The notes under the pieces: model-generated | What the model was told of the DNA's origin: nothing | Database searches by the model: none | The model's input: the letters and a program-made list of their open reading frames with translations, nothing else | Position numbers and translations under genes: made by a program | Assembly (NCBI GenBank): GCA_031400715.1 | Contig: JANNQK010000264.1 | Location: 4,094-68,093, forward strand | Reading direction: 5' to 3' | Source of the DNA: Actinomycetes bacterium | Lineage (GTDB): Bacteria > Actinomycetota > Acidimicrobiia > Acidimicrobiales > Ilumatobacteraceae | DNA: 64,000 nt | Shown: positions 12,305 through 64,000 of the stretch, one piece after another | Layout of the letters: every line of letters begins with the position of its first letter | How positions within the stretch are numbered: position 1 is the stretch's first letter

Positions 12305-12410
12305 GTTGCGGCGGTCCTTGAGTCAAGAGAGATCTCGATTCACTCAAGATCCGAACGCGCCGCGTGGCGATCCCGGGAATGGCCCCCGTGGTCGGGGGGT
12401 TGCAGGACGC

Positions 12411-12803: not shown

Positions 12804-12904
12804 CGGGCCGCGGGCGATCCGGATCGCCGGGTCGCCCATGGTCCCGCCGTAGGGTTGACGGCGTGTGTGAGCCCGACGACCGAGACGCGCGGCAACTCCC
12901 CGCC

Positions 12905-16270: not shown

Positions 16271-16310
16271 ACACCGGCCTCCACTGGTCGACCGGCGCGT
16301 GCTCCGCGGC

Positions 16311-19577: not shown

Positions 19578-19779
19578 CGCCGCCCACCGTCCACGCGTCC
19601 CATGCGAACGATGCTACGCAGCGTGGCACGGCCTTCGGTATCGCCACATGCGGCCGCGCCGTGGTCGGAGCACTCGTTCTTCGAGCGTTCATCTGCGTGT
19701 CACCGAAGCGATGAAACGGGGAGCGCCAGCCGGACGCGATGAGCCGGGTGGCCCATTGCCCCCGTGCGGGTCGCCGGTG

Positions 19780-24988: not shown

Positions 24989-25122
24989 GAGCGGGAACCT
25001 ATCGCCGGGGTGCGATGAGCCGACCGGCCCATTGCCGCAGAGCGTCGACCGTGTTGAGCTGATGTTGACGGTTCGACCATCTCGGTGCGGGTCGTCGACG
25101 ACACGAATGGAGCCGGGCGGCC

Positions 25123-35854: not shown

Positions 35855-36514
35855 ATGGCGGCGGAGAGGAGATCGATGGTCGGCGGCGAGGACGGCAACA
35901 TCGACAACACCACTCACCCTCATGGGTCGGCGGTCTCGCAGACGACGCGCGAGGAACTCGGGCGCGCCGGCATCGAACGACGCTCCAACCCGAGTTGGCG
36001 CAGGGGCGCCGATGGCGACCCTCTGCTCGCGGCCGAGCTGGAGGGCTGTGTCGGAGACGACGCGATCGTGCTCCACTGCCGCATGGCGCCCACCGCTCGC
36101 GGAACGATCGATCACCTCGTCGTCGCGGCGTCAGGGGTGTGGATCGTGGATGCCAAGAGCTACTGGGGAGTCGCCGAGCGTCGCGACGTCGGCAACTGGC
36201 GGACGGTCGATCATCGCCTGTACGTGAACGGCCGTGACGAGACCGCGGCGGTGGACAACGTCACCTGGCAGGCGGCGGTCGTTCGGGCGACGCTCGACTC
36301 GATCGACTGCACCGATGTGCCGGTGCATCCGGTGTTGCTCTTCGTCGGGTCTGGAGGTCGATGGTTCGTGCAGCCCATCGAGATCCGTGGGGTGCGTGCG
36401 ATGTGGACCAAGCAGCTCACCGAGCTCGTCTCGGCACGCGGCACGATCGACGCAGAAGGTCGTCGCTCCATCGCAGCTCAACTCGATGCGGCGCTGCCCG
36501 CTGCGTCGTTCTGA
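35855..36514 (+). CDS. NERD-domain protein (paralog C, D-x-K retained)
   Basis: RGTIDHLVVAASGVWIVDAKSYWG and RLYVNGRD. An alternative in-frame GTG lies at 35849. Confidence 0.7.
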   Translation: MAAERRSMVGGEDGNIDNTTHPHGSAVSQTTREELGRAGIERRSNPSWRRGADGDPLLAAELEGCVGDDAIVLHCRMAPTARGTIDHLVVAASGVWIVDAKSYWGVAERRDVGNWRTVDHRLYVNGRDETAAVDNVTWQAAVVRATLDSIDCTDVPVHPVLLFVGSGGRWFVQPIEIRGVRAMWTKQLTELVSARGTIDAEGRRSIAAQLDAALPAASF

Positions 36515-38421
36515 TACTCGGGAGCGAAGCACTTCCCCAGCACGTCGGCGATGTCGAGCGGCTCGCCGTCGGCCAGCACGGCGAGCACCTGCTGGGTCAA
36601 CGACGCAGGCACCGGGAGGTAGCCGAAGTACGACACGAGGTCCTTGCCGACCGGCAGCAGACGAGCCACGACATGTGAGCCCTTCGGAAGGCGCATGCCG
36701 CGCAGAGCGGCGATCCGCACCTCCTCGTCCGACGTGACATCGGTGAGGGCGAGGAAGTCGGCGTCATGCTCGTCGACGCGAAACAGCGAGCGGTCGGCCA
36801 GCAACCACAACGCAGCCAGCTCGCGTTCGTCCTTGGGCAGCAACGACTTGCGCCGGTCGATGAAGCGGCGGAAGCCCCCCAACTCCTCGAGCGCCAGGTC
36901 GTAGATCAGTTCGCTGTCGATCACCTGCGACAGCAGTTCCGCGCCTCCGCCGGCGGCATCGACCAGCGCCATCGCCAACTCCGCGTGCTCGTGCGCCAGA
37001 TGCTCGCCCACGAAGCGGCACCCTTTGCGGTACAGCCACGCGGCGCGATCGCGCAGCGGGAACTGCTCGTTGCCGAGGTGGCACGCCTTGTACTTGCGGC
37101 CCGACCCGCAGGGGCAGGGATCGTTGCGACCCGCCGACGCCCGCGGCCTCGTGAGGAACGGCTCGATCTCGCCCCACACCACTCCGCCGACCCGCACATC
37201 GCTCGGCGGCACGTTGCCGGCACGCAGCAGGCGCGCCGCCTCGTGAGCGTCGCCCCGATCCGCCGCGATCCCGGCCAGCATCGCATGTGCCCGCGGGTGC
37301 GGATCGTGGACGACGGCACGCTCCAGGGCTGCGATCGCCTCGTCGGTGCGATCGAGGATCTCCCAACACTCTGCCGCAACCACCTCGGGCCCGCTGCAGC
37401 CAGGACCATCCGCCACGTGATCCAACAACGCTGCGCTGAACTTCAGCAGGTCGAGCGGGGTGCGTCCGTGCTCGATCGCCTCGTGCACGAACACCCGGCA
37501 CACGTCGTCGCTGTTCAACGCCATCGCGAGGACGAATGCGTTGTCCTGCTGTTCCCCAGCGGCGCCCAATGCCTCGGCGTGGCCGTCGGTCACCGATGAG
37601 CAGGCGCCCAACAGCATCATCACCGAGGTCGTGTCGTCGCTCGACAACTCGTGATGGGCGTGCAGTTCGTGGAAGCGGCGAGCTGCTGCCACGTCGTTCC
37701 AGTCGGTGCCGATCGGACCCACCCAGTCGCCCTGGTGCTCGAGTCCGGCCCCGGCGAGCAGGAAGGGCATGGGTGGGATCACGACCGAGCGGAACACATC
37801 ACCGTGGTCGGCAAAGGCTCGCACGAAGACCATTCCATGCTCGGCGATCAGCAAGGGATCGGCGTCATCGTCGACGATCGGATCATCGATCATCTCGGCC
37901 TCGGCGTCGAAAGCAGCGTGGAAGGCCGTCGCCAGACCAGGGTCGACCGTCGCGCTTCCGGTTGCCGGCACGATCGACACGCCTTCCCGTCGGAACTCGA
38001 GGATCGACGAGCGACCGGCGAGATCACCCAGCCATCCAGCGGGACCCGTGAGGCAGACCCCCTGCGCCGTGAGTTCGTGTCGGACAACGCCGGTCGAGGT
38101 ACCAGCTGCATCCAGCAGGGACATCTCGTCCCAATGCCACCACGTGATCACCTCGACGCCGTGGTCGAGCGCGAGCGAATCGCCACCATCCACCGGCACC
38201 TCCACCCACCAGCGCGAACCGTGGAGTGCCGAGGGCAGGTTCACCCACCGGTCGCCGACCGGGACGTTGTCGTCGGCCAGCAACTCGAACAAGAGGTCGT
38301 TCGGATCCGCGCCCAGATCGAGGCCGGCGTCACGCAATGCGTCGAGCAACTCTTCTGGAGTGTGCGGACGCTCGCGCAACAGGGCATGTGCCCGTTCGCT
38401 GATGGACTCGAGGCTCGACAT
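36478..38421 (-). CDS. SEC-C motif-containing protein (~647 aa)
   Basis: An internal CPCGSGRKYKACH metal-binding motif. The start was set at MSSLES (38421; alternatives at 38499 and 38514). The upstream 270 aa of track ORF 36478..39231 is antisense to a better gene. Confidence 0.65.
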   Translation of the reverse strand: MSSLESISERAHALLRERPHTPEELLDALRDAGLDLGADPNDLLFELLADDNVPVGDRWVNLPSALHGSRWWVEVPVDGGDSLALDHGVEVITWWHWDEMSLLDAAGTSTGVVRHELTAQGVCLTGPAGWLGDLAGRSSILEFRREGVSIVPATGSATVDPGLATAFHAAFDAEAEMIDDPIVDDDADPLLIAEHGMVFVRAFADHGDVFRSVVIPPMPFLLAGAGLEHQGDWVGPIGTDWNDVAAARRFHELHAHHELSSDDTTSVMMLLGACSSVTDGHAEALGAAGEQQDNAFVLAMALNSDDVCRVFVHEAIEHGRTPLDLLKFSAALLDHVADGPGCSGPEVVAAECWEILDRTDEAIAALERAVVHDPHPRAHAMLAGIAADRGDAHEAARLLRAGNVPPSDVRVGGVVWGEIEPFLTRPRASAGRNDPCPCGSGRKYKACHLGNEQFPLRDRAAWLYRKGCRFVGEHLAHEHAELAMALVDAAGGGAELLSQVIDSELIYDLALEELGGFRRFIDRRKSLLPKDERELAALWLLADRSLFRVDEHDADFLALTDVTSDEEVRIAALRGMRLPKGSHVVARLLPVGKDLVSYFGYLPVPASLTQQVLAVLADGEPLDIADVLGKCFAPEYQNDAAGSAASS

Positions 38422-38661
38422 GGTGGGCACGGCACCAGTGTGCCAGTCGGTCGTCGGGCCCGCCGTCGAAAGCGTCGAGGGAGCACGGCGAGCCGTCATC
38501 GGAGCTCGCTCCATCGGCGGTCGGATGTGGTCACGGGTGGCGAGCGGTGGTGCGATCTGAAATCGGGTCCTGGTCGCATCTGGATCGGATCGGTGGAGAA
38601 CAGGCATCGAGGTGGGAGACTGGTGATCCCAGATGGCTTCGGCCGAGGAGAGTTTCGGACC

Positions 38662-39252
38662 ATGACGCCTGATCAGTTCAAGAAGTGGTGCCCAGGTCTG
38701 TGGCACGTCGCCCCCGGTGGCACGTGGGAGATCATCCGCGAAGAGGGTTTCAAGACGGCCGCCCAACTGCAGGCCGTGACCGTGCCCGCAGGAGACGGCG
38801 ATGGCGAGGCGGTCGTCATCGAGACCACGCAGGGCTCGTATGTCCGCAAGCGCCGCGACCCGTCGTCGTACATGGGCGACGACGACGCGGTGAGCACCTG
38901 GGTGTCGATGCTCGATTCTCGCGTCTACCTCTTCGCGAACCGCGTGCCGATGGACAAGCTGCTGGCCAAGCAGTTGGCCCGCGACAACGGTGCTCAGGAC
39001 ATTCTGATCATCTCGACTCAGCGCCTCCTCGATGCGAAGCGGCCGAGCATCGAGCTCAGCTCGCAGAACTCGAGCGCCGTCGCCCGTGTGCCCGGCCCCG
39101 AGAAGCTTGCGGAGATGTTCCTGCCGTTGTCGCGTTTCGCCGACAAGCGCCCTGCCGAGGTGACCGTGCTCGACGGTTTCGACGCCAAGGGCATCGTGAT
39201 CAGGGCCGAGCGCCACTACGCCGACGGCCACTACGACGTCCTACCGGTCTGA
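38662..39252 (+). CDS. DUF7002-like small protein with a possible H-Y-E ADP-ribosyltransferase-like signature
   Basis: ATG preceded by GAGGAG. The sequence contains LWHVAPGGTWEIIREEGFKTAAQL, LDSRVYLFAN, IELSSQNSSA and AEVTVLDG. The order resembles what I recall of DUF7002/DarT-like proteins. This is a by-eye call only. Confidence 0.45.
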   Translation: MTPDQFKKWCPGLWHVAPGGTWEIIREEGFKTAAQLQAVTVPAGDGDGEAVVIETTQGSYVRKRRDPSSYMGDDDAVSTWVSMLDSRVYLFANRVPMDKLLAKQLARDNGAQDILIISTQRLLDAKRPSIELSSQNSSAVARVPGPEKLAEMFLPLSRFADKRPAEVTVLDGFDAKGIVIRAERHYADGHYDVLPV

Positions 39253-52179: not shown

Positions 52180-52812
52180 TCAGATGTCGACGACCACCAG
52201 GCGCGGCGGGGTGTAGTGCAGCCTGCGGAGGCCGAACTTCACCATCGGCGCCATCACCAACACCCACACGAACGTGCCGACGCCGAACGCGCCGCCCGCA
52301 ATCGCACCGATCACGACGGGCAGTCCATCGCTGATCCATCGGGCAGGCACCACGTCCATCCCTCGCGCCACCAAGCCGAGCATCAGCACCTCCGTCGGCC
52401 CAGGGCCGAGCTCGGTGGGGATCACCAGGCAGATCGCCACGGCGATGATGAGCAGCCCGCCGACGAACAGGGGGATGCGTGACGCGAGGAGCTCCTGTTC
52501 GGGGATGAGGTCGAGCACGAGGTTGACGAGTGGACCGATCACCAACGTGCCGGCGATGCAGGCCCACCCGAGCCGAGCTCCCATGGCTCGGCCGACACCG
52601 AAGAACACGATCGAGTTGACGATGAAGCAGACCCCGAACGACCATCCGGCCCACTCGCTGAGCCCGGTGTTCAACACGTCGAACGGCGATGCGCCGAGCT
52701 CCGCTCGAAGGATCATCGGGATGCCCACACCCACCGCTGCCCATGATGCGAACAACCGGGTGAGGCGGCTCGGGGTCGACAGCCGGTGCTGGCTGGAGTC
52801 GTCGGGGCGCAC
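52180..52812 (-). CDS. YczE/YitT-like integral membrane protein
   Basis: It has a GTG start at 52812. GASPFDVLNTGLSEWAGWSFG and multiple TM helices. The upstream 345 aa of track ORF 52180..53847 is an antisense shadow of the DegT gene. Confidence 0.5.
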   Translation of the reverse strand: MRPDDSSQHRLSTPSRLTRLFASWAAVGVGIPMILRAELGASPFDVLNTGLSEWAGWSFGVCFIVNSIVFFGVGRAMGARLGWACIAGTLVIGPLVNLVLDLIPEQELLASRIPLFVGGLLIIAVAICLVIPTELGPGPTEVLMLGLVARGMDVVPARWISDGLPVVIGAIAGGAFGVGTFVWVLVMAPMVKFGLRRLHYTPPRLVVVDI

Positions 52813-52859: not shown

Positions 52860-54086
52860 TCAGGCTGCGAGGATCGCTGCGGCGTGTCGTTGGATCCGCT
52901 CGACCGCAGCGGCGATCTGCAACGTCGCCGACTCGTCTGCCAGCAGCGCACGGTGCTGGAGCCACACGGTGCTCGCCGCGACGTGGTCGGCGTGAGGGAC
53001 GTGGAGCGAGGTCCAATCCTGGGCGGACGGCACCTCGCGCAGGCGCGGCCCGAGATTGCCGGTCCGGAACACGGCGAGATTCTCCAGCGCCGGGTAGCTC
53101 ACGCCCATCGGCGCCCGCTCGGCAACGAGCGCGGCTTCGAATCGAGGCAGTGGCATCCCCGCGAACGCCGCAGCGTCGTAGTGGAAGACGAAGCAGTAGT
53201 AGCCCTGACTGTCCATGCGGGGGTCGCGGGTCGGCGTGCGTATGCCGTCGATCTGATCGAGCGCAGCGCTCAAGGCGTTCGCACGCAGATTCCGGACCGC
53301 GTGCTGTTCGGGAAAGCGGGCGAGTTGAGCGCGCAGGATCGCCCCCTGCCACTCCGTCATCCTCAGGTTCGAGCCGTACGTGGCGTGGTGGTAGAACCAC
53401 TCGCCCTTCACCCGACCACAGTCGGCGTAGGCCCACGCCGCATCGCGCAGTGCCTCGTCGTTGCAGATGAGCGCCCCGCCCTCTCCGGCGGTCATGAGCT
53501 TCGATCGCTGCATCGAGAAGCTGCCGAAATCGCCCCAGCTCCCCACCCCGCGACCGCGCCAGGTGGTGCCGTGGGCGTGGGCGCAGTCTTCGACCAACCG
53601 GAGGTCTCGTCGCGCGCACAGGTCGGTCAGGGCATCGAGATCGGCCGCTGCTCCGGCCACGTGCACGGCGACGATGGCCCGCGTGCGAGGCGTGATCGCT
53701 GCCTCGGCGGCGGCGACATCGATGCAGAGCGTGTCTGGATCGATGTCGACCAGCACCGGCATGGCATTGACCGCGAGCACTGCCGACGCTGACGCGACGA
53801 ACGTCATCGCCGGAACGATCACTTCGTCGCCCTGGCCGATGTCGCATGCGGCCAGAGCGGCTTCGAGGGTGTGCGTGCCATTGGTGAGCGCGAGCCCGAA
53901 GCGCGCGCCCTGGTACGCGGCGAACTCGGCTGCGAACGTCGCCGCCTGGTCACCGTTGCCCTGCCACCAGCCGCCCGCGTCGAGCACTCCCAGCAGCAAC
54001 TCGCGTTCGCTGTCGTCCCACACCGGCCAGCGGGGGTACTGCGGACACAGTGGGGTGCCTCCCAGCACGGCTGGCTGATCGTTCAC
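52860..54086 (-). CDS. DegT/DnrJ/EryC1/StrS-family PLP-dependent sugar aminotransferase
   Basis: Family-typical blocks: PAVLGGTP...WP.WD, EFAAYQGARFGLALTNGTHTLEAAL, and SFSMQRSKLMTAGEGG with the PLP lysine. GTG start with GGAGGA 5 nt upstream. Confidence 0.8.
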   Translation of the reverse strand: MNDQPAVLGGTPLCPQYPRWPVWDDSERELLLGVLDAGGWWQGNGDQAATFAAEFAAYQGARFGLALTNGTHTLEAALAACDIGQGDEVIVPAMTFVASASAVLAVNAMPVLVDIDPDTLCIDVAAAEAAITPRTRAIVAVHVAGAAADLDALTDLCARRDLRLVEDCAHAHGTTWRGRGVGSWGDFGSFSMQRSKLMTAGEGGALICNDEALRDAAWAYADCGRVKGEWFYHHATYGSNLRMTEWQGAILRAQLARFPEQHAVRNLRANALSAALDQIDGIRTPTRDPRMDSQGYYCFVFHYDAAAFAGMPLPRFEAALVAERAPMGVSYPALENLAVFRTGNLGPRLREVPSAQDWTSLHVPHADHVAASTVWLQHRALLADESATLQIAAAVERIQRHAAAILAA

Positions 54087-54099
54087 GTTGGTCCTCCGT

Positions 54100-54975
54100 T
54101 CACGACGCTCCTCCATCTCCGACTCGCTGTCCCCATCGTCGGAGCACCTGCTCCAGACCTCCGAAGGTGACCACTCGGAACTCCTCGGCTGCTGCAACGC
54201 CGTACTCGGCCCCGATGCGGGTGGCGCCGGCTCGCAGCAGTGGCTCCATCAGCGGCTGCGGGTCACCCGACACGACGACCTGTTCGGCAATCGGCAGCCT
54301 CCAGCCACCGGTGTCGGCCTGCAGCACCAATTGGCGGGCGTAGTTCCGGAGCATGGTGCGATGTGCACAGCCCGCAGCGATCTTCCGGTCGAGCGTGGCC
54401 GAGACGTCGATCACATCGGTCACGTCCATCACCCGTCGGCCGAAGTACCAACGTTCGAACGCGCCGTGCGGCCGCAGACCTTCGTCGAGGTGGTCCGGAT
54501 GATGGAGGTCGAACTGGCTGGTCCAGAAGGCCTCATCGGCGGCCCGCGCCACTTGCACGTGGTCTTGGTTGTCCTCGCCGAACATGCTGAACGGATCGAA
54601 GGTCACCAGCGCATACGGGCGGTGGGTGCGAACCTGACGGATGATCTGCTCCCGCAGCGTCACCTCGCTCACGTCGGCGAGAACGTCCGTCGCGTATCCG
54701 AGTTCCACGATGTGTGCGACGCCGAGCACGTCGCAGGCCCGTCGGAACTCGGCGGCGTTCGCCTCGATCGTCTCCTCCTCTGTCAATCCGATCGAGTCCC
54801 AGCGGTCATCGGTGACCCGCACGACCACCACCCGCCAACCCGCATCCGACCATGCGGCCACCGTGCCGCCCAGGAACAAGGCGACGTCGTCGGCATGTGC
54901 GACCACCACCAGCACCACTCTGCCCTCACCCGCCGGCCCTCCGGTGCTCGGGTGAACGGGTCTGATCGTCGCCAC
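54100..54975 (-). CDS. PIG-L/LmbE-family deacetylase
   Basis: VVVAHADDVALFLGGT matches the AHPDD-type zinc motif. FDPFSMFGEDNQDH is also present. Confidence 0.75.
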   Translation of the reverse strand: MATIRPVHPSTGGPAGEGRVVLVVVAHADDVALFLGGTVAAWSDAGWRVVVVRVTDDRWDSIGLTEEETIEANAAEFRRACDVLGVAHIVELGYATDVLADVSEVTLREQIIRQVRTHRPYALVTFDPFSMFGEDNQDHVQVARAADEAFWTSQFDLHHPDHLDEGLRPHGAFERWYFGRRVMDVTDVIDVSATLDRKIAAGCAHRTMLRNYARQLVLQADTGGWRLPIAEQVVVSGDPQPLMEPLLRAGATRIGAEYGVAAAEEFRVVTFGGLEQVLRRWGQRVGDGGAS

Positions 54976-54997
54976 GGAGCGATCGTATGCTCACTCC

Positions 54998-56053
54998 ATG
55001 CACGAGCTGGGGGCGGAGGGAATCGGCTCGCCGTTCCCATACGAAGAGGTGGATGCGGTGGAGGCGCTCCACGGTCTGGGCACGCCACTCGTGGTGTGCG
55101 CCAACGATCCGCCGTGGAGTCGACTCGCTCCCGCGCTGCCCACACCGGTTGCCATGGTCGAGTCGTGGAACATGGATCTCCTCCATCTCGAGCAGACCGT
55201 GACCTCGCTGCGTGAGGCCCATCCACCGGACGCGCTCGCCGCGTCGACGGTCGTGGGCATCGGCGGGGGAACGGCGCTCGACACCGCCAAGTTCGTCGCG
55301 TGGCAGCTCGGGTTGCCGCTGGTGCAGGTGCCGTCGATCACGTCGGTCGATGCTGGTTTCACCGATGCCATCGGCGTGCGAGACGGGGGCAACGTTCGCT
55401 ACATCGCCAACATCGTCCCGCAACTCGTGGTTCTCGATCTTGCCCTCGTGCTCAGCGCTCCTGCGCATCTCAATCGGGCAGGGATCGGTGACATCTTGTC
55501 GTGCCACACGGGACTCTTCGATTGGCGTCTCGCCTCCGATGCCGGTCACGGCGCTGCATGGAACGACCGTCTGGCCGCGCTGGGCACCACGTTGCTCGAC
55601 GAGCTCGAGGCTGTCGCCGATGAGGTCGGAGCGGTCACGGAAGCAGGGGTGCGATGGATCGCGAGTGCCTACCGGCGTATCGGTGCCGCCTGCGCCTGGG
55701 CCGGGCACAGCAGATTCGAAGAGGGCAGTGAGCACTTCTGGGCGTACTCGTACGAGCACCGAACCGGGGCCCATCCGGTGCATGGCGAGATCATCGCCTG
55801 TGCGGTGTGCGCGCTCGCTCACGTGCAGGGCAACGACCCCGAACGGGCACGAGACATCGTCGTTCGGTCCATGGCCCGCGCTCATCCCGACGACATCGCC
55901 GTCGCGGAGGCCGACTTCCGCGTCTGTCTCGCCGGGCTGTCCGCATTCGCCCGCGAGCGGGAGCTCGATGTGTCGGTGGTCGATCTGCGTCCGATCACCG
56001 AACGTCAGGTCGACGCGGCGTGGGCCTTCGCGTCGAGCCTTCCGCGGCGCTGA
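54998..56053 (+). CDS. Iron-containing ADH / glycerol-1-phosphate dehydrogenase / DHQS-like superfamily enzyme
   Basis: VVGIGGGTALDTAKFVA nucleotide-binding motif, and VPSITSVDAGFTDAIGV. Confidence 0.7.
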   Translation: MHELGAEGIGSPFPYEEVDAVEALHGLGTPLVVCANDPPWSRLAPALPTPVAMVESWNMDLLHLEQTVTSLREAHPPDALAASTVVGIGGGTALDTAKFVAWQLGLPLVQVPSITSVDAGFTDAIGVRDGGNVRYIANIVPQLVVLDLALVLSAPAHLNRAGIGDILSCHTGLFDWRLASDAGHGAAWNDRLAALGTTLLDELEAVADEVGAVTEAGVRWIASAYRRIGAACAWAGHSRFEEGSEHFWAYSYEHRTGAHPVHGEIIACAVCALAHVQGNDPERARDIVVRSMARAHPDDIAVAEADFRVCLAGLSAFARERELDVSVVDLRPITERQVDAAWAFASSLPRR

Positions 56054-56111: not shown

Positions 56112-56168
56112 GTGTGGGACTCGGGTTGGAGTGTGGGACTCGGGTCGAGGTGTGGGACTCGGGTCAGG
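56112..56168. repeat. 19-bp tandem repeat, 3 copies (GTGTGGGACTCGGGT + 4 nt)
   Basis: Copies start at 56112, 56131 and 56150. The third overlaps the stop of the minus-strand lipoprotein gene. Confidence 0.9.
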
Positions 56169-56904
56169 TGGTGAGGGCCGCGGTGTACAGGTCACCGAGA
56201 TCGGCGACGTCGGTGATCTGATCGACCGGAGGGCCGTCGATCGTGATCTCGTCGAACTCGAGCACGTCGAACACCACGGGCCGTGTCTGCGATGCGTTGT
56301 CGCTCTCGAACCGCACGAGTCGGCCGTCGTCGGCGGCCAGCCAGTAGACGGCCCGCTCCCCGTATCGAAGCACCACCACCTCCACACCGCGCAGCGTGTC
56401 GTTGCGCAGGAACGCCGATCCGGGCTCCTGCTCGATCAGCAGGGGGTTGTCGCGCTGTTCGGCAGCCAATCCCGTCACCAGTGCCAACGCCTGATCGAGT
56501 TGGCGGCCCACCGGGTCGGGGTCACGAACCACCCACGGGACCGCTGGCTGTCCCGCCTGCTCGAGCAGTGGTGCCAGGTCGTTGCGTGCCTCCAGCACTG
56601 CGTCATCGGACCAGAACACCTCGCGAACGCCTTGCTCCACGTTGCGCGTGCTCACCTGTGCATGTCCGCGGTGCTCGCTCCAGTCGACCTCACCTTGCAG
56701 GTTGATCGTGGCGCCGTCGCCCACCTGCACCGCGAGCTGGAAGCTGGCGCCGCCGCGTTCCACGTTCTGGAACAGCACGTTGGCGAGCATCGCCGACTCC
56801 TCCGAGGTGAGGGGTCGCTCGGTCGGTTCGACTGCGTCGCCGCCGCAGGCAGCCAGAGCGAGAGCGCACAGGGTGATCGCAGCCCATGGTCGAGCGCCCC
56901 TCAT
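56164..56904 (-). CDS. Hypothetical lipoprotein
   Basis: MRGARPWAAITLCALALAACGG lipobox. GC3-rich. No family was recognised. Confidence 0.5.
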   Translation of the reverse strand: MRGARPWAAITLCALALAACGGDAVEPTERPLTSEESAMLANVLFQNVERGGASFQLAVQVGDGATINLQGEVDWSEHRGHAQVSTRNVEQGVREVFWSDDAVLEARNDLAPLLEQAGQPAVPWVVRDPDPVGRQLDQALALVTGLAAEQRDNPLLIEQEPGSAFLRNDTLRGVEVVVLRYGERAVYWLAADDGRLVRFESDNASQTRPVVFDVLEFDEITIDGPPVDQITDVADLGDLYTAALTT

Positions 56905-56929
56905 CGCGCGGGTCTCCATCGATCGGGTC

Positions 56930-58288
56930 TCATCGCTCGGGCACCCGGATCGAGGCGAGATCGACCGCGGGCGGGATCGGGGAGGCCGATGTCCAGGGAG
57001 CCGTCGCAGCGTCCGGCATCGATGGTTGTGCCGAGGGCGCCGGTACGTCGCGGTAGTCGATGCCCTCTGGAGGCGGTGGCTGCTCCCAGACCACCGCCGC
57101 GACCGGGGTTCGCGAGCCAGGGCATGGGAGGAGCGCTTCGATCGCTTCCGGCAACGACGTCGTGAAGGTGTTGCCGGCAAAGCAGTTCGCTGCGGAATGA
57201 TCGATCGACGGGTCGGGTAGGTAGAGCAGGTCGAGCGAGTTGTCCTCGAGCACGTTGCCTTCGATGCTGTTTCGTTCGGGTGTGTAGATGCCGAGGCGGA
57301 CGACGCCGATCCCGTACGAGCTGTGCCCACTGACGCGGTTGCGCAGCACGGTGTTCGCAGTGCCGCCGCCGATGGCGATACCACCCCCGAAGAAACCGTT
57401 CGCGATCGCTGGCGTCGCAGCCTCGGCATTGTCGACCACGAGGTTGCCGGCGATCACCGTTTCGACCTGAGGCGCGAGCAGTTCGGCCTGCTGGGAGTTC
57501 GGCGTCATCCCCAGGCGGTTGTGAGCGAACACCGAGTCGATCACGTAGACGCCGCCCGAGGCGTTGGTGCCGTAGTAGCCGATCGCGTTGTACTCCGCCA
57601 CGGAGTCGCGCACCACCACATCGCACGGCTTGCACTGCCCGACATAGATCCCCGAGTCGGGATGGCCGCTGACGTACACCCGCTCGATCAACCCACCGCG
57701 CGACGCAAACGCATACACGCCGTACAGCCCGTTGTTGTGGGCCGTGACCCAGCTGACCCGGTAGCCATCGAGCGTGTTGCCTCCGCTGCCGTACGCCGTG
57801 TCCGGATCGCGTGATCCGTCGGCCTCGGTCGAGCCGTTGAAGAGCACGCCGTTCTGTTGGTACCGGCGAACGGTCAGGTTCTCGACGCCGACTCCGTCGG
57901 CAGTGACGGCGACGCCGTTCGGCAAGCGGTCCTGCCCATCGAGCACCACCAGGTTCCGATCGGTACCGCGCAGGACGATTCCGTCGGTCTCGACGACCAC
58001 GGCCTCGTGGTACTCGCCAGGCGAGATCAGCACCAGATCGCCGGGTCGCGCCTCGTCGACGGCCGCTTGGATGGTGGCGTACTGCTGGGGCACCCGGCGT
58101 ACCGAGACCTGGTCGTTCTTGTCGTTCCCGCACGAGGTGAGGCCACCGGCGAGCACCGCAGCGATCAGGGCGACACCGATCGGACGGCACCGATGCCGCA
58201 GGACAGCGGAGTCTCTGAGCAGGGATGTCACTCCGGATCTCAAGAATTTCTCACCTTCTGCGTCGAACTTGACGATATCAGGAGGCAT
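56930..58288 (-). CDS. Right-handed parallel beta-helix (NosD/pectate-lyase-fold) lipoprotein
   Basis: Lipobox LTSCGN. YATIQAAVDEARPGDLVLISPGEYHEAV, followed by many N-x-V/I beta-helix rungs. Confidence 0.65.
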   Translation of the reverse strand: MPPDIVKFDAEGEKFLRSGVTSLLRDSAVLRHRCRPIGVALIAAVLAGGLTSCGNDKNDQVSVRRVPQQYATIQAAVDEARPGDLVLISPGEYHEAVVVETDGIVLRGTDRNLVVLDGQDRLPNGVAVTADGVGVENLTVRRYQQNGVLFNGSTEADGSRDPDTAYGSGGNTLDGYRVSWVTAHNNGLYGVYAFASRGGLIERVYVSGHPDSGIYVGQCKPCDVVVRDSVAEYNAIGYYGTNASGGVYVIDSVFAHNRLGMTPNSQQAELLAPQVETVIAGNLVVDNAEAATPAIANGFFGGGIAIGGGTANTVLRNRVSGHSSYGIGVVRLGIYTPERNSIEGNVLEDNSLDLLYLPDPSIDHSAANCFAGNTFTTSLPEAIEALLPCPGSRTPVAAVVWEQPPPPEGIDYRDVPAPSAQPSMPDAATAPWTSASPIPPAVDLASIRVPER

Positions 58289-58334
58289 TTCGCGCCGGAT
58301 CGATGCTGCGCCAGGGCAGCGCCGGAGCGAACGG

Positions 58335-61300
58335 GTGGAATCGATCGTGAACGAAGCTGAACCCAAGGTCGAACGCGCGTGGTGGACCGTCGCTGCGATC
58401 TCGGTCGGTCTGGCCTACCTCGGGTGGCGTTCGGTCGCCACCCTCGACGGCGTGCCGGCATGGTTGGGCTGGCCGGTGCTCGGCATCGAGGCGTTGGGGG
58501 TGCTCGGGGTGATCATCCTCCTGCTCGGCCTGGCTCGACAACCGCTGCACACAGACGGCACCGCTCACGCGACCGCGAAGGCAGATGTCATCGTTCGAGT
58601 CGAGGCCGAGCCACTCGGCCGGATCGCTGCCACCCTCGCCGGCCTCCGCCGTGCGGAGAACGTCGCGTCCACCACGATCCTCACCTTCAGCGAGCGCGAA
58701 GACGTGCGTCACCTGGCCGCAGAGCACGGCATCGAGGTGTACTACGTCGATCCCGAGGTCGACGCGACCGGACTGCAGATGGCCCTTCGGGTCGGCAAGA
58801 GTCCGTTCCTCGTCATCCTCGATGCCGGCGATGTGCCGATGCCGAACATGGCCGACGTGCTCGTCCGCCACGCCTACGACGGCCGCATCGCCGGCGTGCG
58901 CGGCGCGGTCGACAGCTGGGCCACCGATTCGGCAGAGCACGACTCGCGCGGGAATCATCTCCTCCGCTTCGAACGCGAGGTGCTCTACCCGGCTGCCGGT
59001 CGTGCCGCCGTGTTGCATGGTTCTGGCGTGCTGTTGCGCCGATGGGCGATCGAGCATGTCGGTGTGCCGAAGGGTCCCCGCCGCACGGTCGAGCTGCGCT
59101 TGTCGATGCGCCTCCGCAAGGCCGGCCTCGAAGTCGTCGCCCCGGCCGATCCGGTGCTCGTCTCCGTCTACGCCGCCAACACCGCGGCAGCGGTCGCACT
59201 CGAGCGTCGCCGCGACACCGCCGCTGCCGTGCGGATGCTGCGATCCACCGATGGGCCGCTCTTGGCCCGGGGCCTCCAGTGGCGCGATCGCATCGCCTTG
59301 CTGGCCACGTTCGTGCGACCGTTGTCCGGCATCCGTCGGGCGTTGTTCGTCACCGCGATCGTCGCATCGTTGCTCAGTGGCGAGTTGCCGATGCGTGGAC
59401 CGGTGTTGGGATTCGTCGTTCTGTGGCTGCCGTGGATGCTGCTGCAGTCGATCGCACTGCGCGTGGCGTCGCTCGGACGGCTCGATTGGGGAGACAGCGC
59501 CCGTTGGTCGTTCAGCACGATGGGCTCGTCGGTCGCGGCACTGTTCGGCGCTGGCGATCCCGTGATCGGTGCAGGGCGGAACCAACCTCGGCACGGAGCC
59601 TTCAGGGAGTTCACGTCGAACCGGCCGATCACCGCGACCCTCGCCGGTCTGGCCGTTGTGGTGCCGTTCGTCGCGATCAGCGATCGCTTCACCGGGTGGT
59701 TGCCGCCGATGCCGATCGCCGAGCGGGCGGCGCTGCTCGCCGTCACGATGTGGGCGATCGCAGTGATGCTCGACGTGATGCGCTGTCTGAACGGTGCTCG
59801 ACAGCTCCGGAGGGCGCCTCGCATCGCCACCGAGTTCCCCGGCAGCGTCGGTGACCTCGGAGCGACCATCATCGATCTCACGCCCTACGGCGCCGGCGCG
59901 ATCACCGATGAACCGGTCGACGTCGGCCAGGAGGTGCATGTCTGCTTCGATGTCCCGAGCGCGCAGGATCGCACATCCGTCGTCGCAGTCGGTGTTGTCC
60001 GGAGCGTGCGCACCACCCCGCACGGCACGGTCAGCGGCATCGAGTTCGTCTCGATGGACGACGCGTCGAGCGATGCGCTCTTCGAGTACTGCGAGGTCAT
60101 CCACTCCCAGGACCACTTCGCAACCAGATCACGAAGCCGAGCCGAGCGACGCGCCCAGCCGCAGATCCCGCGGGTCATGGTCCCATCGCGGCGCATGGGT
60201 GTGCGCCTCTCGGCAGCACTCGTGCTCCTCGGTGTCGTCGTGGCCACGGCTCCACCGTTTCGCTCCATCGAGGCTGCCCCCGTCGCTGCCGGCGGCGCGA
60301 TCACCGTGACGATGTTCCAGGACCACAACGCGAACGGGATCCGGAACCTGGCCGCCGACACCACGAATCCCGCGCTCGACACCGGCGTGCCCGGAGCGAC
60401 GGTGACCGCCACCTGTCTCACCGACGACGGTGGAGACACCACGGCCGGCACGGGCGACGGAGAGACCTACTCGTCGGCCGTCACCGCGGTCGACGCAGGC
60501 GGAGGGGTGTACGACCTGACGAACCTTCCGGGGACCCCCTGTCGCATCGAAGTGACTGCGCTTCCCGCAGGGTTCGAGCCGGGACCGCTCGGTGTGGACA
60601 ACGGAGGCCTCGTTCAGTTCGCAGGTGCGGGTGCAGCGGTGAGCATCGGGGTGAACCGCCCGGACGAGTTCTGCCAGGACAACCCGACGCTCGTCACCAG
60701 CTGCATGACCTTCGGCGATCCCGCGTATGGCGCCGGTGCAGACTTCGCGACGATCAAGTCGTTCTCGTACAACGCCAGCGGCTCGCTGTGGGGTGGACCT
60801 GTCCCGACGGAGACGCCCGTCACCCTGGCGACGAACAAGGAGATCGGCAGCGTGTTCGGGCTCGAGTACCAGCGCGCCGCGCGAACGCTGTACCTCGCCG
60901 CGTACACGAAGGTCTACGCCGGATTCGGGCCCGGTGGTCCGGGGGCGATCTACCAGATCGATCCGAGCACCGGCGGGGCGACCATGTTCGCCACGATCCC
61001 GAACGCGGGCAGCCTGCCCGCCAGGGCCGGGTATGCGCCGAACCCGAACTCGGTGTCGGGTGATTGGTTGCAGGACGGCCAGTACTGGAACGCCGTCGGA
61101 ACGACCTCGCTCGGCGATCTCCAGCTCTCGCCCGACGGTTCGACGCTGTGGGTCGTGAACCTGGCGGATCGCCAGCTCTACCCAGTCGACACCGCGACGG
61201 CAACGGTCGGCACTCCTGTGGCCATCCCGCTCGCCGTCGGTGCCGTGGGCGCGTGCGCCGCTCCCGATGTTCGACCTTTCGGACTCGGCCGCCTCGATGG

Positions 61301-64000
61301 CCAACTGCTGGTCGGCTCGGTGTGCAGCGGCCCATCGACGAGCGACCTGCGGATGTACGTGTACGGGTTCGATCCGATCGCCAGGTCGTTCACGACAACA
61401 CCGCTGTTCGAATCATCCCTCGTCTACACCCGCGGCCGGCCCGGCAACAGCTGTGGTCCCAACGGCGCACTCGGCAACTGGAATCCCTGGACCACGCGCA
61501 ACGTGTTCGACGGTTCGAGCACGCCGGTGTACTGCGCCTACACACAGCCGATGCTCTCCGACATCGAGGTCGACGACGACGGTGCGCTGATCCTGGGCAT
61601 CCGCGATCGTTTCGGCGATCAGGCGGGCGAGGACGTGCCGGCCGGAACCAACGGCGGTGGCGGCGAGGGTGTCTCCGGTGGCGAACTGCTTCGTGCGTGC
61701 CGGTCGGGCAGCACCTGGGTGCTCGAGAGCAACGGCGTGTGCGGCGGACGAACGTCGTTGGCGGTCGGCAACACCCAAGGGCCCGGTGGCAAGGAGTTCT
61801 ACAGCGACGGGTTCGCCACTGCCACGGGCACGGGTAGCAATCATCAGGAGGTCTCGATCGGCGGCTTGGCGAAGGTGCCGGGCTTCACGACGGTTGCGCA
61901 CACCGTGTTCGACCCCAGCACGACCAACGGCTCCGACTGGCGCGCCGGTGGCATCCGTCGTAACAGCAACCAGAACGGTCTCGTCAGCGGCTTCTTCCAG
62001 TTGTTCGACAAGTGCGACAGCTCGGGTCTCGCGTGCCCGGTGGGCCGCACGAAGACGCTCACGTTCGGCAAGGTGAACGGACTCGGCGATCTGGTCGCGC
62101 TCTGCGACATGGCGCCGGTCGAGGTGGGCAACCGCGTCTGGGCCGACGAGAACGGCAACGGCGTGCAGGATCCGGGTGAACCAGCAGTTCCCGGCGTGCC
62201 GGTGAGCCTCCAGATCGGCTCGTCGACCTACACGGTCGTCACGGATGGCAATGGGGCGTATCGCTTCTCCAGCGATGGTCGGTTCAGCGACGCGCTCGGC
62301 GTGGACTTCGGTGTGCCGCAGATGACCGAGGGCGCTACCGCAACGATCAGCTTCCCACCGACCGTCACCATCGGCGGCACCCTGCGCCCGATCACGAGGC
62401 GGGATGCAGCCGGCTCGAACGACGCCATCGACTCCGACGCAGACGAAGGCACCGGACAGCTGACGATCGCCGTCGGCGGCGCCGGCGACAACGATCACAC
62501 CTACGACGCCGGCTACGCGTCGCGCTACTCCGTCGGCGACTTCGTGTGGGACGACCGCAACAACGACGGCACCTTCCAAGTGGGCGAACCCGGGATCGAC
62601 GGGGTCACCGTCCGACTCATGGCCGATGGCGACGACAACGGCATTCCGGACGGGCCTGCGCTCGCATCGCAGTCGACGTCGAGCGGTGGGTACTACCGCT
62701 TCACCGATCTCGCCACCGGCACGTACGTGGTGGAGGTCGAAACACCGAGCGGATTCAGGTCGAGCACCGGTCAGAATGCCTCGGCCACCGGTCCGTACGA
62801 AGGGGCCGCCACACCCGACCCGGACACCGTCGCGATCGATGGCGACGACAACGGCACTGCCACCGATCCGAGCGGAACCATCGTTCGGTCGGCGTCGGTC
62901 TCACTCGGTTCGTTCGAGCCCATCGGAGAGCCTGCCACGCCCGGCCATCCAGACGCCGCAGAGGATCGGCGCGCCAACGCGACGGTCGACTTCGGCTTCT
63001 TCCGCCCGCTCTCGATCGGCAACCTGGTCTGGGACGATGCCGACGACAGCGGTACCTTCGACAGCGGCGAGACAGGTATCCCAGGCGTGACCGTTCTGCT
63101 CCGCCAGGGCAACACGGTGCTCGACTCGACGACCACCGATGTGGACGGTCGCTACCTCTTCGCGTTGTTGTCGAGCGGTCAGTACGAGGTGGAGGTGGTC
63201 GCCCCGAGCGGATACCTGACCTCCACCGGTCGCAACGGGGCCGGCGACTCGGAGCCGGGGCCTGACGCCGATCTCGACAACGACGACGACGACGACAACG
63301 GCACGAACGTGTTCGGCGGCATTCGGACCGCGACCCTCGACCTCACCACGACGGCAGAACCCACCGCGGACGATGACACGTCGCCTGTCGGGGTCACCGA
63401 TCCAGCCGCAGACGCCGATGCGAACTACACCGTCGACTTCGGGCTGTGGCGACCTGTCAGCATCGGCAACCTGGTGTGGTCCGATGTCGATGACGACGGG
63501 ATGTACGACATCGGCGAGCCCGGCGTGCCGGGCGTCCCCGTCCGCCTCTTCGCGGCCGACGGTACGACCGAGATCGAGATCGGCCCCGACGGTGTTCTCG
63601 ACACCAGCGACGATGCGCCTGGCGGCATGATGAGCGATGCCAACGGGCGGTATCGGTTCACCAACCTGCGCCCCGCGACGTACCGCGTGCAGGTTGCCGT
63701 GCCCTCCGGATGGCGCACCTCGTCGGTCGCCGACAGCGGCGATGCCAACGACGACACCGACAACGACAACAACGGCGGCCCCCGAGCCACCGGCAACGCA
63801 CTCGCGGGCCACGTGGAACTGTCGGTCGGCACCGAACCGGTCGCCGACGGCGACGGCGACGCAAGCTCGAATCTCACGGTCGATGTCGGTCTGTTCCAAC
63901 CGAATCCGTCGATGGCGCTCCTGAAGGCCACCAACGGGTGCGACGCCGACACCCCCACGGGAGCGATCGGGCCATCTGGCGGCTGCCCTCCCGGCGACGG
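58335..64000 (+). CDS. Giant fusion ORF (3' partial): 2 TM + GT2-like domain + TM bundle + PilZ + TM + surface protein with SdrD-B-like repeats
   Basis: Manual codon-by-codon translation of the frame with codon starts divisible by 3 found no stop from 57765 to the window end (the last stop is TAG at 57762-57764). The ORF is absent from the track, probably because it has no stop. Candidate GTG starts are at 58335 (GGAG 8 nt upstream) or 58347. Confidence 0.8.
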   Translation, partial: MESIVNEAEPKVERAWWTVAAISVGLAYLGWRSVATLDGVPAWLGWPVLGIEALGVLGVIILLLGLARQPLHTDGTAHATAKADVIVRVEAEPLGRIAATLAGLRRAENVASTTILTFSEREDVRHLAAEHGIEVYYVDPEVDATGLQMALRVGKSPFLVILDAGDVPMPNMADVLVRHAYDGRIAGVRGAVDSWATDSAEHDSRGNHLLRFEREVLYPAAGRAAVLHGSGVLLRRWAIEHVGVPKGPRRTVELRLSMRLRKAGLEVVAPADPVLVSVYAANTAAAVALERRRDTAAAVRMLRSTDGPLLARGLQWRDRIALLATFVRPLSGIRRALFVTAIVASLLSGELPMRGPVLGFVVLWLPWMLLQSIALRVASLGRLDWGDSARWSFSTMGSSVAALFGAGDPVIGAGRNQPRHGAFREFTSNRPITATLAGLAVVVPFVAISDRFTGWLPPMPIAERAALLAVTMWAIAVMLDVMRCLNGARQLRRAPRIATEFPGSVGDLGATIIDLTPYGAGAITDEPVDVGQEVHVCFDVPSAQDRTSVVAVGVVRSVRTTPHGTVSGIEFVSMDDASSDALFEYCEVIHSQDHFATRSRSRAERRAQPQIPRVMVPSRRMGVRLSAALVLLGVVVATAPPFRSIEAAPVAAGGAITVTMFQDHNANGIRNLAADTTNPALDTGVPGATVTATCLTDDGGDTTAGTGDGETYSSAVTAVDAGGGVYDLTNLPGTPCRIEVTALPAGFEPGPLGVDNGGLVQFAGAGAAVSIGVNRPDEFCQDNPTLVTSCMTFGDPAYGAGADFATIKSFSYNASGSLWGGPVPTETPVTLATNKEIGSVFGLEYQRAARTLYLAAYTKVYAGFGPGGPGAIYQIDPSTGGATMFATIPNAGSLPARAGYAPNPNSVSGDWLQDGQYWNAVGTTSLGDLQLSPDGSTLWVVNLADRQLYPVDTATATVGTPVAIPLAVGAVGACAAPDVRPFGLGRLDGQLLVGSVCSGPSTSDLRMYVYGFDPIARSFTTTPLFESSLVYTRGRPGNSCGPNGALGNWNPWTTRNVFDGSSTPVYCAYTQPMLSDIEVDDDGALILGIRDRFGDQAGEDVPAGTNGGGGEGVSGGELLRACRSGSTWVLESNGVCGGRTSLAVGNTQGPGGKEFYSDGFATATGTGSNHQEVSIGGLAKVPGFTTVAHTVFDPSTTNGSDWRAGGIRRNSNQNGLVSGFFQLFDKCDSSGLACPVGRTKTLTFGKVNGLGDLVALCDMAPVEVGNRVWADENGNGVQDPGEPAVPGVPVSLQIGSSTYTVVTDGNGAYRFSSDGRFSDALGVDFGVPQMTEGATATISFPPTVTIGGTLRPITRRDAAGSNDAIDSDADEGTGQLTIAVGGAGDNDHTYDAGYASRYSVGDFVWDDRNNDGTFQVGEPGIDGVTVRLMADGDDNGIPDGPALASQSTSSGGYYRFTDLATGTYVVEVETPSGFRSSTGQNASATGPYEGAATPDPDTVAIDGDDNGTATDPSGTIVRSASVSLGSFEPIGEPATPGHPDAAEDRRANATVDFGFFRPLSIGNLVWDDADDSGTFDSGETGIPGVTVLLRQGNTVLDSTTTDVDGRYLFALLSSGQYEVEVVAPSGYLTSTGRNGAGDSEPGPDADLDNDDDDDNGTNVFGGIRTATLDLTTTAEPTADDDTSPVGVTDPAADADANYTVDFGLWRPVSIGNLVWSDVDDDGMYDIGEPGVPGVPVRLFAADGTTEIEIGPDGVLDTSDDAPGGMMSDANGRYRFTNLRPATYRVQVAVPSGWRTSSVADSGDANDDTDNDNNGGPRATGNALAGHVELSVGTEPVADGDGDASSNLTVDVGLFQPNPSMALLKATNGCDADTPTGAIGPSGGCPPGD
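59797..60100 (+). other. PilZ domain region within the giant ORF
   Basis: RQLRR (RxxxR, 59799-59813), then DLTPYG (D-x-S/T-x-x-G, 59874-59891), then VVRSVRTTPHGTVSGIEFVSMDD. Confidence 0.6.
62113..64000 (+). repeat. Protein-level SdrD-B/Cna-B-type repeats within the giant ORF
   Basis: VGNRVWADENGNGVQDPGEPAVPGVPV; VGDFVWDDRNNDGTFQVGEPGIDGVTV; IGNLVWDDADDSGTFDSGETGIPGVTV; IGNLVWSDVDDDGMYDIGEPGVPGVPV. Each is followed by G.Y.F..L..G.Y.V. Confidence 0.7.

Follow-up and report, generated by a model that had tools for sequence, protein, structure and literature searches.

We analysed a 64,000-nucleotide stretch of contig JANNQK010000264.1 (assembly GCA_031400715.1, an actinobacterium of the Ilumatobacteraceae), referred to here as the window. 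At its far end lies a giant gene whose product joins a membrane module resembling the cellulose synthase BcsA, with a PilZ domain, to a very large repeat-containing ectodomain. An earlier annotation made from the sequence alone (the first-pass annotation) had noticed a plus-strand frame, with codon starts divisible by 3, that meets no stop between a TAG at 57762-57764 and position 64000. Translation bears this out, giving 2078 consecutive sense codons (57765..64000). At the base composition of this DNA (GC 0.676, 0.022 stops per codon) the chance of so long an open run is about 8e-21. GC content at third codon positions (GC3) stays at 0.78-0.91 in this frame from about 58350 to 64000 without a break, including the junction between the two halves at 60000-60300; upstream of about 58300 the frame is open because it is a mere shadow of a minus-strand gene. 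The coding start is GTG 58335, and the MESIVNEAEP start is identical in a 96%-identical ortholog (L013). The gene is missing from the program-made list of open reading frames (ORFs) because the tool, by its own statement, leaves out ORFs that run off the source, as the first-pass annotation had suspected. It was equally right that the plus-strand ORFs listed over 58.3-64 kb belong to other frames, since none starts at a position divisible by 3. The stop codon is expected about 2.36 kb past the window end, and fusA should come next. Gene callers and ORF tracks lose or split such genes at contig ends and in error-prone metagenome-assembled genomes (MAGs). The parts of the gene are as follows.

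58335 to 64000, plus strand: first 1888 codons (about 71%) of one gene with a predicted product of about 2673 residues (stop-free frame, continuous GC3, identity to the L013 ORF)
58359 to 58532, plus strand: transmembrane helices 1 and 2, residues 9-66 (AlphaFold helices 9-35 and 42-66 with a predicted local distance difference test score, pLDDT, above 90; they align with BcsA transmembrane helices)
58581 to 59243, plus strand: cytoplasmic domain like glycosyltransferase fold A (GT-A) and family 2 (GT2), residues 83-303 (sub-threshold Pfam GT2 match, BcsA alignment, motif columns, lowest ratio of nonsynonymous to synonymous substitution rates, dN/dS)
59280 to 59777, plus strand: interface helices and transmembrane helices 3-6, residues 316-481, equivalent to the channel-forming region of BcsA (AlphaFold helices 316-348, 357-378, 387-402, 422-453 and 461-481; Foldseek)
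59808 to 60128, plus strand: PilZ domain, residues 492-598, with the cyclic di-GMP (c-di-GMP) motifs RRAPR (RxxxR) and DLTPYG ([D/N]xSxxG-type) (Pfam PF07238, family columns, model)
60129 to 60188, plus strand: basic cytoplasmic linker (SRSRAERRAQPQIPRVMVPS) (read from the sequence; dN/dS up to 0.96)
60189 to 60254, plus strand: transmembrane helix 7 with a signal-peptide layout (n-region RRMGVR, 15-residue hydrophobic core, ATAP) (AlphaFold helix 621-638; conservation)
60255 to 60275, plus strand: c-region with a candidate signal-peptidase I site, PFRSIEA/AP, the putative cut falling after residue 647 (ortholog residues)
60282 to 60674, plus strand: first extracellular domain, residues 650-780, with an SdrD_B-like start motif, ITVTMFQDHNANG (motif shared with the mature N-termini of free-standing homologs)
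60687 to 62099, plus strand: Cys-containing β-propeller, residues 785-1255, without a Pfam model (AlphaFold, Foldseek, 50 homologs)
62100 to 63998, plus strand: four SdrD_B repeats with start motifs at 62124, 62532, 63015 and 63462 (Pfam SdrD_B, E 5e-75, four stretches)

The fusion is conserved as a single gene

A scan of species-representative genomes gave 17 loci. Sixteen are in MAGs labelled Acidimicrobiia, Ilumatobacteraceae or Actinomycetota, several of them from lakes, and the weakest, at 24% identity, is in a Cellulomonas isolate. Seven loci (L008, L009, L010, L013, L014, L015 and L025) carry the gene as a single unbroken ORF of 2646-2674 residues, and in L011 and L012 the frame is still open at the contig ends. 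The window protein matches the first 1888 residues of the complete 2673-residue L013 ORF at 96% identity without a gap, and the L025 protein, P0010, was found on six contigs of up to 358 kb. Across ten orthologs the junction reads R-V-(M/V/I)-V-P-(P/S)-R-R-x-G-V-R-L-(S/A)-A...L-L-G-V-x-V-A-T-A-P-P-x-x-(S/T)-x-(E/Q)-A-A-P, with no stop. The absence of a stop between the PilZ end and the surface part, claimed for the window in the first-pass annotation, thus extends to a junction conserved in ten independent assemblies, and the fusion is real and conserved.

One related locus appeared split. In L001 (GCA_041394585.1, an Ilumatobacteraceae MAG, 10001-20805) many frame-breaking indels leave the giant gene in four calls and fusA in five small fragments. 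The gene pieces are collinear with the window protein, and L015, whose 45-residue C-terminal tail is identical to that of L001, has an intact ORF of 2674 residues. The annotation of L001 as separate 'GT2 family' and 'SdrD B-like' proteins is therefore an artefact. A missed stop or frameshift at 60.1-60.3 kb is ruled out, as ten assemblies read through and the L001 splits are indel artefacts. The first-pass annotation had asked whether orthologs carry one gene or two and had named three outcomes that would speak against its reading: a stop or indel near the junction, split orthologs, and failure of profile hidden Markov models (HMMs) to find the domains. The seven complete orthologs answer for one gene, and none of the three outcomes occurred; PilZ (PF07238, 24.9 bits) and SdrD_B (E 5e-75) were both detected.

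A further relative, L002 (P0001, on a 79%-identical Joint Genome Institute contig), departs from all orthologs after residue ~724, at about 2170-2278, and stops at 748 residues near the contig end. This is likely to be a frameshift or a chimeric contig end, not a genuine short form.

The N-terminal module has the BcsA fold, an intact PilZ domain and replaced catalytic motifs

An AlphaFold model of residues 1-712, built on 60 family sequences, was confident (pLDDT 86.3, predicted template modelling score, pTM, 0.85). The best structural matches found by Foldseek were BcsA of E. coli and Rhodobacter (E 8e-27 to 2e-22, template modelling score 0.62-0.64, ~690-730 columns, 16-18% identity), followed by plant CesA and hyaluronan synthases. 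A family profile searched against the PDB likewise found E. coli BcsA, at E 3e-14 over profile positions 11-535. Model and matches place a GT-A domain within a transmembrane channel architecture, which is the BcsA fold, and the AlphaFold model together with Pfam reproduces the order read in the first pass (two transmembrane helices, GT2-like domain, multi-pass block, PilZ, linker, helix). Family-level models place the protein outside the curated BcsA family: the NCBIfam entries PRK11498 and TIGR03030 score 46.7 bits against a cut-off of 992 and 33.7 against 699. The Pfam GT2 model Glyco_tranf_2_3 reaches 23.3 bits, below its gathering cut-off of 27.

The PilZ domain passes its Pfam cut-off (24.9 bits against 22.5, residues 492-586) and is modelled as a β-barrel (497-574) followed by a helix (576-598). 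Both c-di-GMP-binding motifs are present, as RRAPR and as DLTPYG with Thr in place of Ser. In the 109-member family alignment R492 is kept in 106 sequences, R496 and G519 in all, D514 in 105 (Asp or Asn at this position in all 109) and Ser or Thr at 516 in 90.

BcsA motifs were mapped onto the protein through the profile alignment and the same family alignment, with the following result.

DDG of BcsA: LDDG in six canonical relatives, LTFS in the window protein
KAGN of BcsA: AGNIN in six canonical relatives, ATGLQ in the window protein
DxD of BcsA: DADH in six canonical relatives, DAGD in the window protein
TED of BcsA: xED in six canonical relatives, TVE in the window protein
QxxRW of BcsA: RxRWA in six canonical relatives, RRRDT in the window protein

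The six canonical relatives are short proteins (640-753 residues), and because they show the expected motifs in the same columns the alignment register is valid. The second Asp of DxD and the Trp of QxxRW are both missing in 101 of the 109 members, with Gly at the second Asp in 102. Since the D, DxD, (T)ED, QxxRW signature is replaced, the window protein does not belong with the processive BcsA-type synthases, and the reading as a canonical cellulose synthase was rejected. The first-pass description of a BcsA-like GT2/PilZ membrane protein therefore stands for the fold and the PilZ domain; its GT2 part falls below the Pfam gathering score and lacks the catalytic signature.

Ortholog comparison showed that every domain is under purifying selection, with dN/dS well below 1. 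Constraint is strongest on the GT-like domain (0.07-0.23); PilZ has values of 0.19-0.56, the propeller 0.09-0.32 and the repeats 0.13-0.39. These ratios indicate that the GT-like domain is not decaying, although the protein as a whole falls outside the processive synthases.

A signal-peptide-like helix links the module to the ectodomain

The basic linker after PilZ is the only region under relaxed selection, with dN/dS up to 0.96, and is modelled with low confidence. Helix 7 and the c-region behind it are constrained (dN/dS 0.07-0.26) and have the traits of a signal peptide, namely a basic n-region, a 15-residue hydrophobic core, a helix-breaking ATAPP and a small residue at -1. The candidate cleavage site is present in 10 of 10 long-form orthologs, with Ala at -1, an aliphatic residue or Thr at -3, and AP after the site. 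This segment is internal (residues 619-647); the N-terminus of the protein is the polytopic membrane module and not a cleavable signal peptide. Were signal peptidase to cut after IEA in IEA/AP, the predicted mature N-terminus would be APVAAGGAITVTMFQDHNANGIR. Free-standing homologs of the ectodomain have ordinary Sec signal peptides, directly followed by the same mature motif: in P0157 the signal peptide ends in GVARA and the mature part starts SGSTAGTVTGVAFRDYNANG, where the window protein has FRSIEA followed by APVAAGGAITVTMFQDHNANG.

Short members of the family (676-695 residues, 46-50% identity) keep helix 7, followed by a loop of ~25 residues, a second helix with a basic tail and a stop. 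The gene downstream of them is fusA, with no adhesin. Helix 7 is thus native to the family, and its capture, in this strain only, as the signal peptide of a once-separate downstream gene is ruled out. The proposed topology (cytoplasmic PilZ, one membrane pass, outside domain) is upheld and strengthened, because a strongly basic linker precedes the helix and even short forms of 690 residues keep it.

The ectodomain ends in a sortase signal in orthologs

Pfam has no match in 60255-62100. The first domain after the helix had been called SdrD-B-like, a call that could not be sustained for residues 650-780, where no HMM responds and the likeness is limited to the start motif. The large Cys-containing central domain proposed next to it is present and is now recognised as a β-propeller: its AlphaFold model is all-β (pLDDT 80.6, pTM 0.89). 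Foldseek returned only generic matches for it (TolB, YVTN, Kelch, strictosidine synthase) at template modelling scores of 0.35-0.43, and no specific function can be assigned from them. The 470-residue propeller is also a recurrent extracellular domain in at least 50 proteins (P0156-P0205), mostly free-standing and 600-820 residues long, with SdrD_B, CarboxypepD_reg, DUF11 and vWA as partner domains; named sources are Actinomycetota, Chloroflexota, Planctomycetes and Bacteroidota.

Beyond the propeller the prediction of at least four SdrD-B-like repeats held, Pfam finding four stretches within the window. Domain maps of the full-length orthologs L013 and P0010 show seven SdrD_B repeats (three beyond the window's four), three DUF7507 domains and then LPVTG. 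All seven complete orthologs, L013 and six more, end in LPVTGG, a hydrophobic helix and RARRPRTL, a canonical sortase sorting signal; in the window gene this signal would lie past the window end. An LPXTG end occurs in L001, L008-L010, L013-L015 and L025, and also in P0011, P0023 and L023. The protein falls outside the Sdr adhesin family as such: the NCBIfam model MSCRAMM_SdrD scores 159.9 bits against a cut-off of 2500, and the translation contains no Ser-Asp repeat region and no A region of the Sdr type.

The module belongs to a large family with many extracellular extensions

A profile search over 1.84 billion representatives gave 1298 matches, 666 at E<1e-10 and 163 at E<1e-30, with the module always N-terminal. 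Among the 108 listed representatives that reach the post-PilZ helix, the sequence continues beyond it for more than 80 residues in 79, more than 200 in 63, more than 500 in 19 and more than 1000 in 7, as arrays of SdrD_B or CarboxypepD_reg repeats. The fusion is therefore no one-off. An attempt to enlarge the named family by a second, word-indexed profile search brought back essentially the same seven proteins. The entries looked up were all metagenomic, and either 'hypothetical' or misleadingly auto-named ('protocatechuate 3,4-dioxygenase beta subunit/cellulose...').

Two members, P0096 and P0112 (MFN8035208.1 and MFN8035207.1; 1903 and 2077 residues), are adjacent paralogs on a 2.63-Mb contig of an Acidimicrobiia MAG, each with about nine CarboxypepD_reg repeats in place of SdrD_B. 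Such a pair shows that the family has undergone tandem duplication and ectodomain swapping.

Genomic neighbourhood

The other genes considered in the window are listed below.

1399 to 1770, at the start of the window: rpsL
1793 to 2263, at the start of the window: rpsG
2407 to 4470, at the start of the window: PF09826 β-propeller protein
52183 to 52767, minus strand: DUF6198 protein
56164 to 56933 (start approximate), minus strand: lipoprotein of ~250 residues without family assignment, downstream of the β-helix gene (lipobox LAAC; no Pfam match)
56930 to 58288 (start approximate), minus strand: divergently transcribed right-handed β-helix lipoprotein, NosD/Pel9A-like (Pfam Beta_helix and NosD; lipobox LTSC)

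The two-lipoprotein divergent operon lies directly upstream of the giant gene in every long-form locus with enough flank (L001, L008-L010, L013-L015 and L025) and in none of the short-form loci. Short-form loci have the order rpsL-rpsG-PF09826-DUF6198-[GT2/PilZ]-fusA within ~5 kb. In long-form loci fusA also comes after the giant gene, directly so in L025.

Comparison of loci L003-L007, L016-L022 and L025 showed that this locus separates rpsL-rpsG from fusA, their str-operon neighbour, and that the gap is ~5 kb in short-form relatives against more than 60 kb in the window, where it is filled by unrelated genes (peptidases, a SARP/AAA regulator, XPB-like helicases, a molybdopterin oxidoreductase and others), suggesting a variable island between rpsG and fusA. 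Among its occupants, minus-strand genes at 16311-19613, 21108-25159 and 36478-39240 encode a large SARP-type (Trans_reg_C-BTAD-AAA) regulator, an XPB/ERCC3-like helicase pair and a 920-residue protein with a SEC-C motif, all unrelated to the giant gene. At 52860-56053 a DegT-type aminotransferase (minus strand), a PIG-L deacetylase (minus strand) and a protein like dehydroquinate (DHQ) synthase and iron-containing alcohol dehydrogenase (plus strand) are suggestive of amino-sugar or aminocyclitol chemistry. In the related loci that were fetched none of the three had a match, and the trio is probably not part of the system. We also considered a Rosetta-stone link between the fused propeller and the PF09826 propeller near rpsG; it is ruled out by an hhalign probability of 0.2% and the lack of any significant blastp match. 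No BcsB-like match was seen among the window ORFs scanned, which were a part of all ORFs, or in the orthologous loci.

A membrane module that may tie c-di-GMP to the cell wall

We propose that the locus encodes, in one gene, a bipartite envelope protein of about 2673 residues that probably serves lake Acidimicrobiia (Ilumatobacteraceae-type MAGs) as an envelope or adhesion module linked to c-di-GMP. The proposal builds on what is established here: one conserved ORF whose product has a membrane module of BcsA fold, with PilZ motifs intact and synthase motifs replaced, a domain of propeller fold and, in orthologs, an LPXTG end. The PilZ domain would bind c-di-GMP and control the membrane module as in BcsA. 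Helix 7, which resembles a Sec signal, would take the ~2000-residue ectodomain out of the cell, presenting in order the ~130-residue segment with its SdrD_B-like start, the propeller, which is likely to be a binding head, a stalk of SdrD_B and DUF7507 repeats, and LPVTG. A sortase would then join the far end to peptidoglycan. PilZ control and sortase anchoring together would couple c-di-GMP status to an adhesin or matrix-binding structure that is anchored in the wall and produced at the same site in a 1:1 ratio. The GT-like domain is most likely not dead but retains some non-canonical function, either sugar-related or in binding, because it is the most constrained region despite missing the processive-synthase signature. 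Whether signal peptidase cuts at the candidate site or the chain stays intact as a membrane-to-wall tether appears about equally balanced: the signal-peptide layout and the precedent of the processed fusion AcsAB favour cleavage, and the retention of both terminal helices in short forms, which hints at docking on the module, favours an intact chain.

Several observations weigh against this proposal. The canonical donor-binding and catalytic residues are replaced, so the mechanism of BcsA, polymerisation gated by c-di-GMP, is not simply transferable. Short forms hold both terminal helices around a loop of only 25 residues, and the core function therefore needs no ectodomain. Most extended family members end in a plain transmembrane helix with a basic tail and canonical LPXTG is found in few (P0010, P0011, P0023 and L023), which makes wall anchoring clade-specific. 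The last ~785 residues lie outside the window, so the LPXTG end is taken from orthologs. Two Pfam scans of ORFs and a GGDEF/LPXTG motif scan of the 64-kb window found no sortase, no diguanylate cyclase (GGDEF) and no polysaccharide cluster. Finally, c-di-GMP binding, sortase anchoring, cleavage and enzymatic activity are all predictions from sequence and structural models.

Two other readings of the membrane module deserve weight, each with perhaps one chance in a few. In the first, the protein would be a working c-di-GMP-activated exopolysaccharide synthase of the BcsA type, and the ectodomain a built-in, BcsB-like guide or tether for the polymer across a thick wall. That BcsA is the best structural match over ~690 columns, that PilZ is intact and that the GT-like domain is so strongly constrained are all consistent with a synthase, as is the divergent β-helix lipoprotein that accompanies the long form, its fold being typical of polysaccharide lyases and epimerases; fused synthase-partner polypeptides are also known (AcsAB). 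The motif columns speak otherwise: QxxRW has become RRRDT, KAGN has become TGLQ, the second Asp of DxD is nearly always Gly, and the Asp of DDG is lost as well in the clade of the window protein. The six relatives that keep all motifs have no ectodomain, and the ectodomain itself has no similarity to BcsB, matching only SdrD_B-type and propeller sequences.

The second reading, of similar and equally limited probability, takes those replacements at face value and sees a pseudo-synthase without catalytic activity, whose only role would be that of a transmembrane receptor for c-di-GMP. Binding at PilZ would alter the helix bundle and thereby decide whether the covalently attached adhesin is displayed, cleaved or released, a single-chain form of inside-out signalling with a logic like that of LapD/LapG/LapA. 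In its favour, the PilZ motifs hardly vary while every canonical catalytic motif has been replaced, a constrained helix forms the covalent link between receptor and adhesin, and the architecture recurs with many different ectodomains. Against such a receptor, the GT-like domain is more constrained than PilZ, which would be unusual for a mere scaffold, and the short forms, with a loop of 25 residues, offer no outside part on which such control could act. Conformational signals would also be poorly conducted along a stalk of independent β-sandwich repeats, and any coupling would be lost if signal peptidase cut after helix 7.

Production of two proteins from the locus is improbable. An internal start near ATG 60177 or 60195, raised in the first-pass annotation, would yield an ordinary secreted adhesin, and the upstream part would be a long leader or a separate protein. 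The sequence from Met 60177 does read as a textbook Sec signal peptide, and in each ortholog one or more of the three codons ahead of P(P/S)RR is ATG or GTG. Both Met codons are unconserved, however, being replaced by Ile, Val, Leu or Ala in orthologs, and no Shine-Dalgarno-like sequence precedes them; the ortholog comparison thus lends no support to a conserved site of internal initiation or of ribosome binding. With such a GC content, chance alone would be expected to place a GTG among three Val codons. With no stop to end an upstream protein, full-length translation must still yield the fusion, and in the short forms, too, the helix is a conserved and integral element. An artefact, in which sequencing or assembly error joined two adjacent genes or a pseudogene is decaying, is hardly credible: the four gene calls of L001 would suit it, but the fusA of that MAG is fragmented too, its frame jumps are collinear with the window protein, L015 with the same tail is intact, nine other assemblies read through, and dN/dS is well below 1 in all domains.

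If the proposed envelope module is extended to its boldest form, which we offer as speculation, the protein would represent a new class of c-di-GMP effectors among Gram-positive Actinomycetota. Its BcsA-like module would have been retooled, losing the polymerase signature but keeping PilZ and a tightly constrained GT-like domain, and would stay covalently joined to a sortase-anchored adhesin of ~2000 residues, so that one polypeptide bridges messenger, membrane and peptidoglycan. Here c-di-GMP might directly control display, release or tension of the adhesin, or a novel type of glycosyl transfer, either to the wall or to the chain as it passes, and short forms would be derived by ectodomain loss. 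Control of adhesion by c-di-GMP is well understood in Gram-negative bacteria (BcsA, LapD/LapA) and poorly in Gram-positive ones, especially the uncultured Acidimicrobiia that are abundant in lakes. The gene is a testable candidate for coupling the second messenger to surface attachment or matrix retention in planktonic actinobacteria. It joins a PilZ receptor of synthase shape to a giant wall-anchored protein, within a family of more than 100 sequence clusters with interchangeable ectodomains. A BcsA-fold protein that lacks the QxxRW-type signature and has its GT-like domain under the strongest constraint implies either new chemistry or a pseudo-enzyme with a conserved non-catalytic role.

Comparison with known systems

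The membrane module shares with BcsA (PDB 4P00, 9B8V, 9FNN) the fold and the order of transmembrane helices, GT-A domain, interface and transmembrane helices and C-terminal PilZ with RxxxR and DxSxxG. It differs in its low identity (16-18%), in the replacement of DDG, KAGN, DxD, TED and QxxRW, in the extra transmembrane helix after PilZ, in the ~2000-residue ectodomain with an LPXTG end, and in having no BcsB partner among the ORFs scanned. With the Sdr/MSCRAMM LPXTG proteins the protein shares a stalk of tandem SdrD_B (Ig-like) domains and, in orthologs, LPXTG with a hydrophobic helix and basic tail; unlike them it lacks a cleavable signal peptide at its N-terminus, a ligand-binding A region and Ser-Asp repeats.

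In AcsAB of Komagataeibacter/Gluconacetobacter, BcsA and BcsB are fused in a polypeptide that undergoes proteolytic processing (PMC4877109). There, too, a synthase-type protein with PilZ is translated together with its extracytoplasmic partner as a single chain, the link being a hydrophobic, signal-like segment. In the window protein the partner is an adhesin-type propeller and SdrD_B ectodomain with a sortase signal in place of BcsB, the host is Gram-positive, and processing is at the level of a candidate site. The free-standing proteins that combine the propeller with SdrD_B, DUF11 or vWA (P0157, P0165, P0184, P0185 and others) resemble the ectodomain in the propeller (30-52% identity), the mature N-terminal motif and a C-terminal transmembrane anchor or LPXTG, and carry an ordinary Sec signal peptide where the window protein has a 640-residue BcsA-like/PilZ module.

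In the LapD-LapG-LapA system of Pseudomonas a GGDEF-EAL receptor, a periplasmic protease and an adhesin secreted by a type I secretion system are encoded by separate genes and act in a Gram-negative envelope. The likeness is one of logic only, cytoplasmic c-di-GMP being linked to a giant repeat adhesin at the surface; the proteins are unrelated, and the window protein holds receptor and adhesin in one polypeptide. Full-text literature searches, which included a PilZ census and a Bcs review and whose coverage was incomplete, returned no description of this architecture, in line with the first-pass annotation, which knew of no described synthase-like c-di-GMP receptor fused to adhesin repeats; this is absence of evidence only. 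Both halves of the protein are of known kinds. What is new is that the two are covalently united and conserved in that state, that the catalytic signature is replaced, and that an internal signal-like helix is combined with a C-terminal sortase signal.

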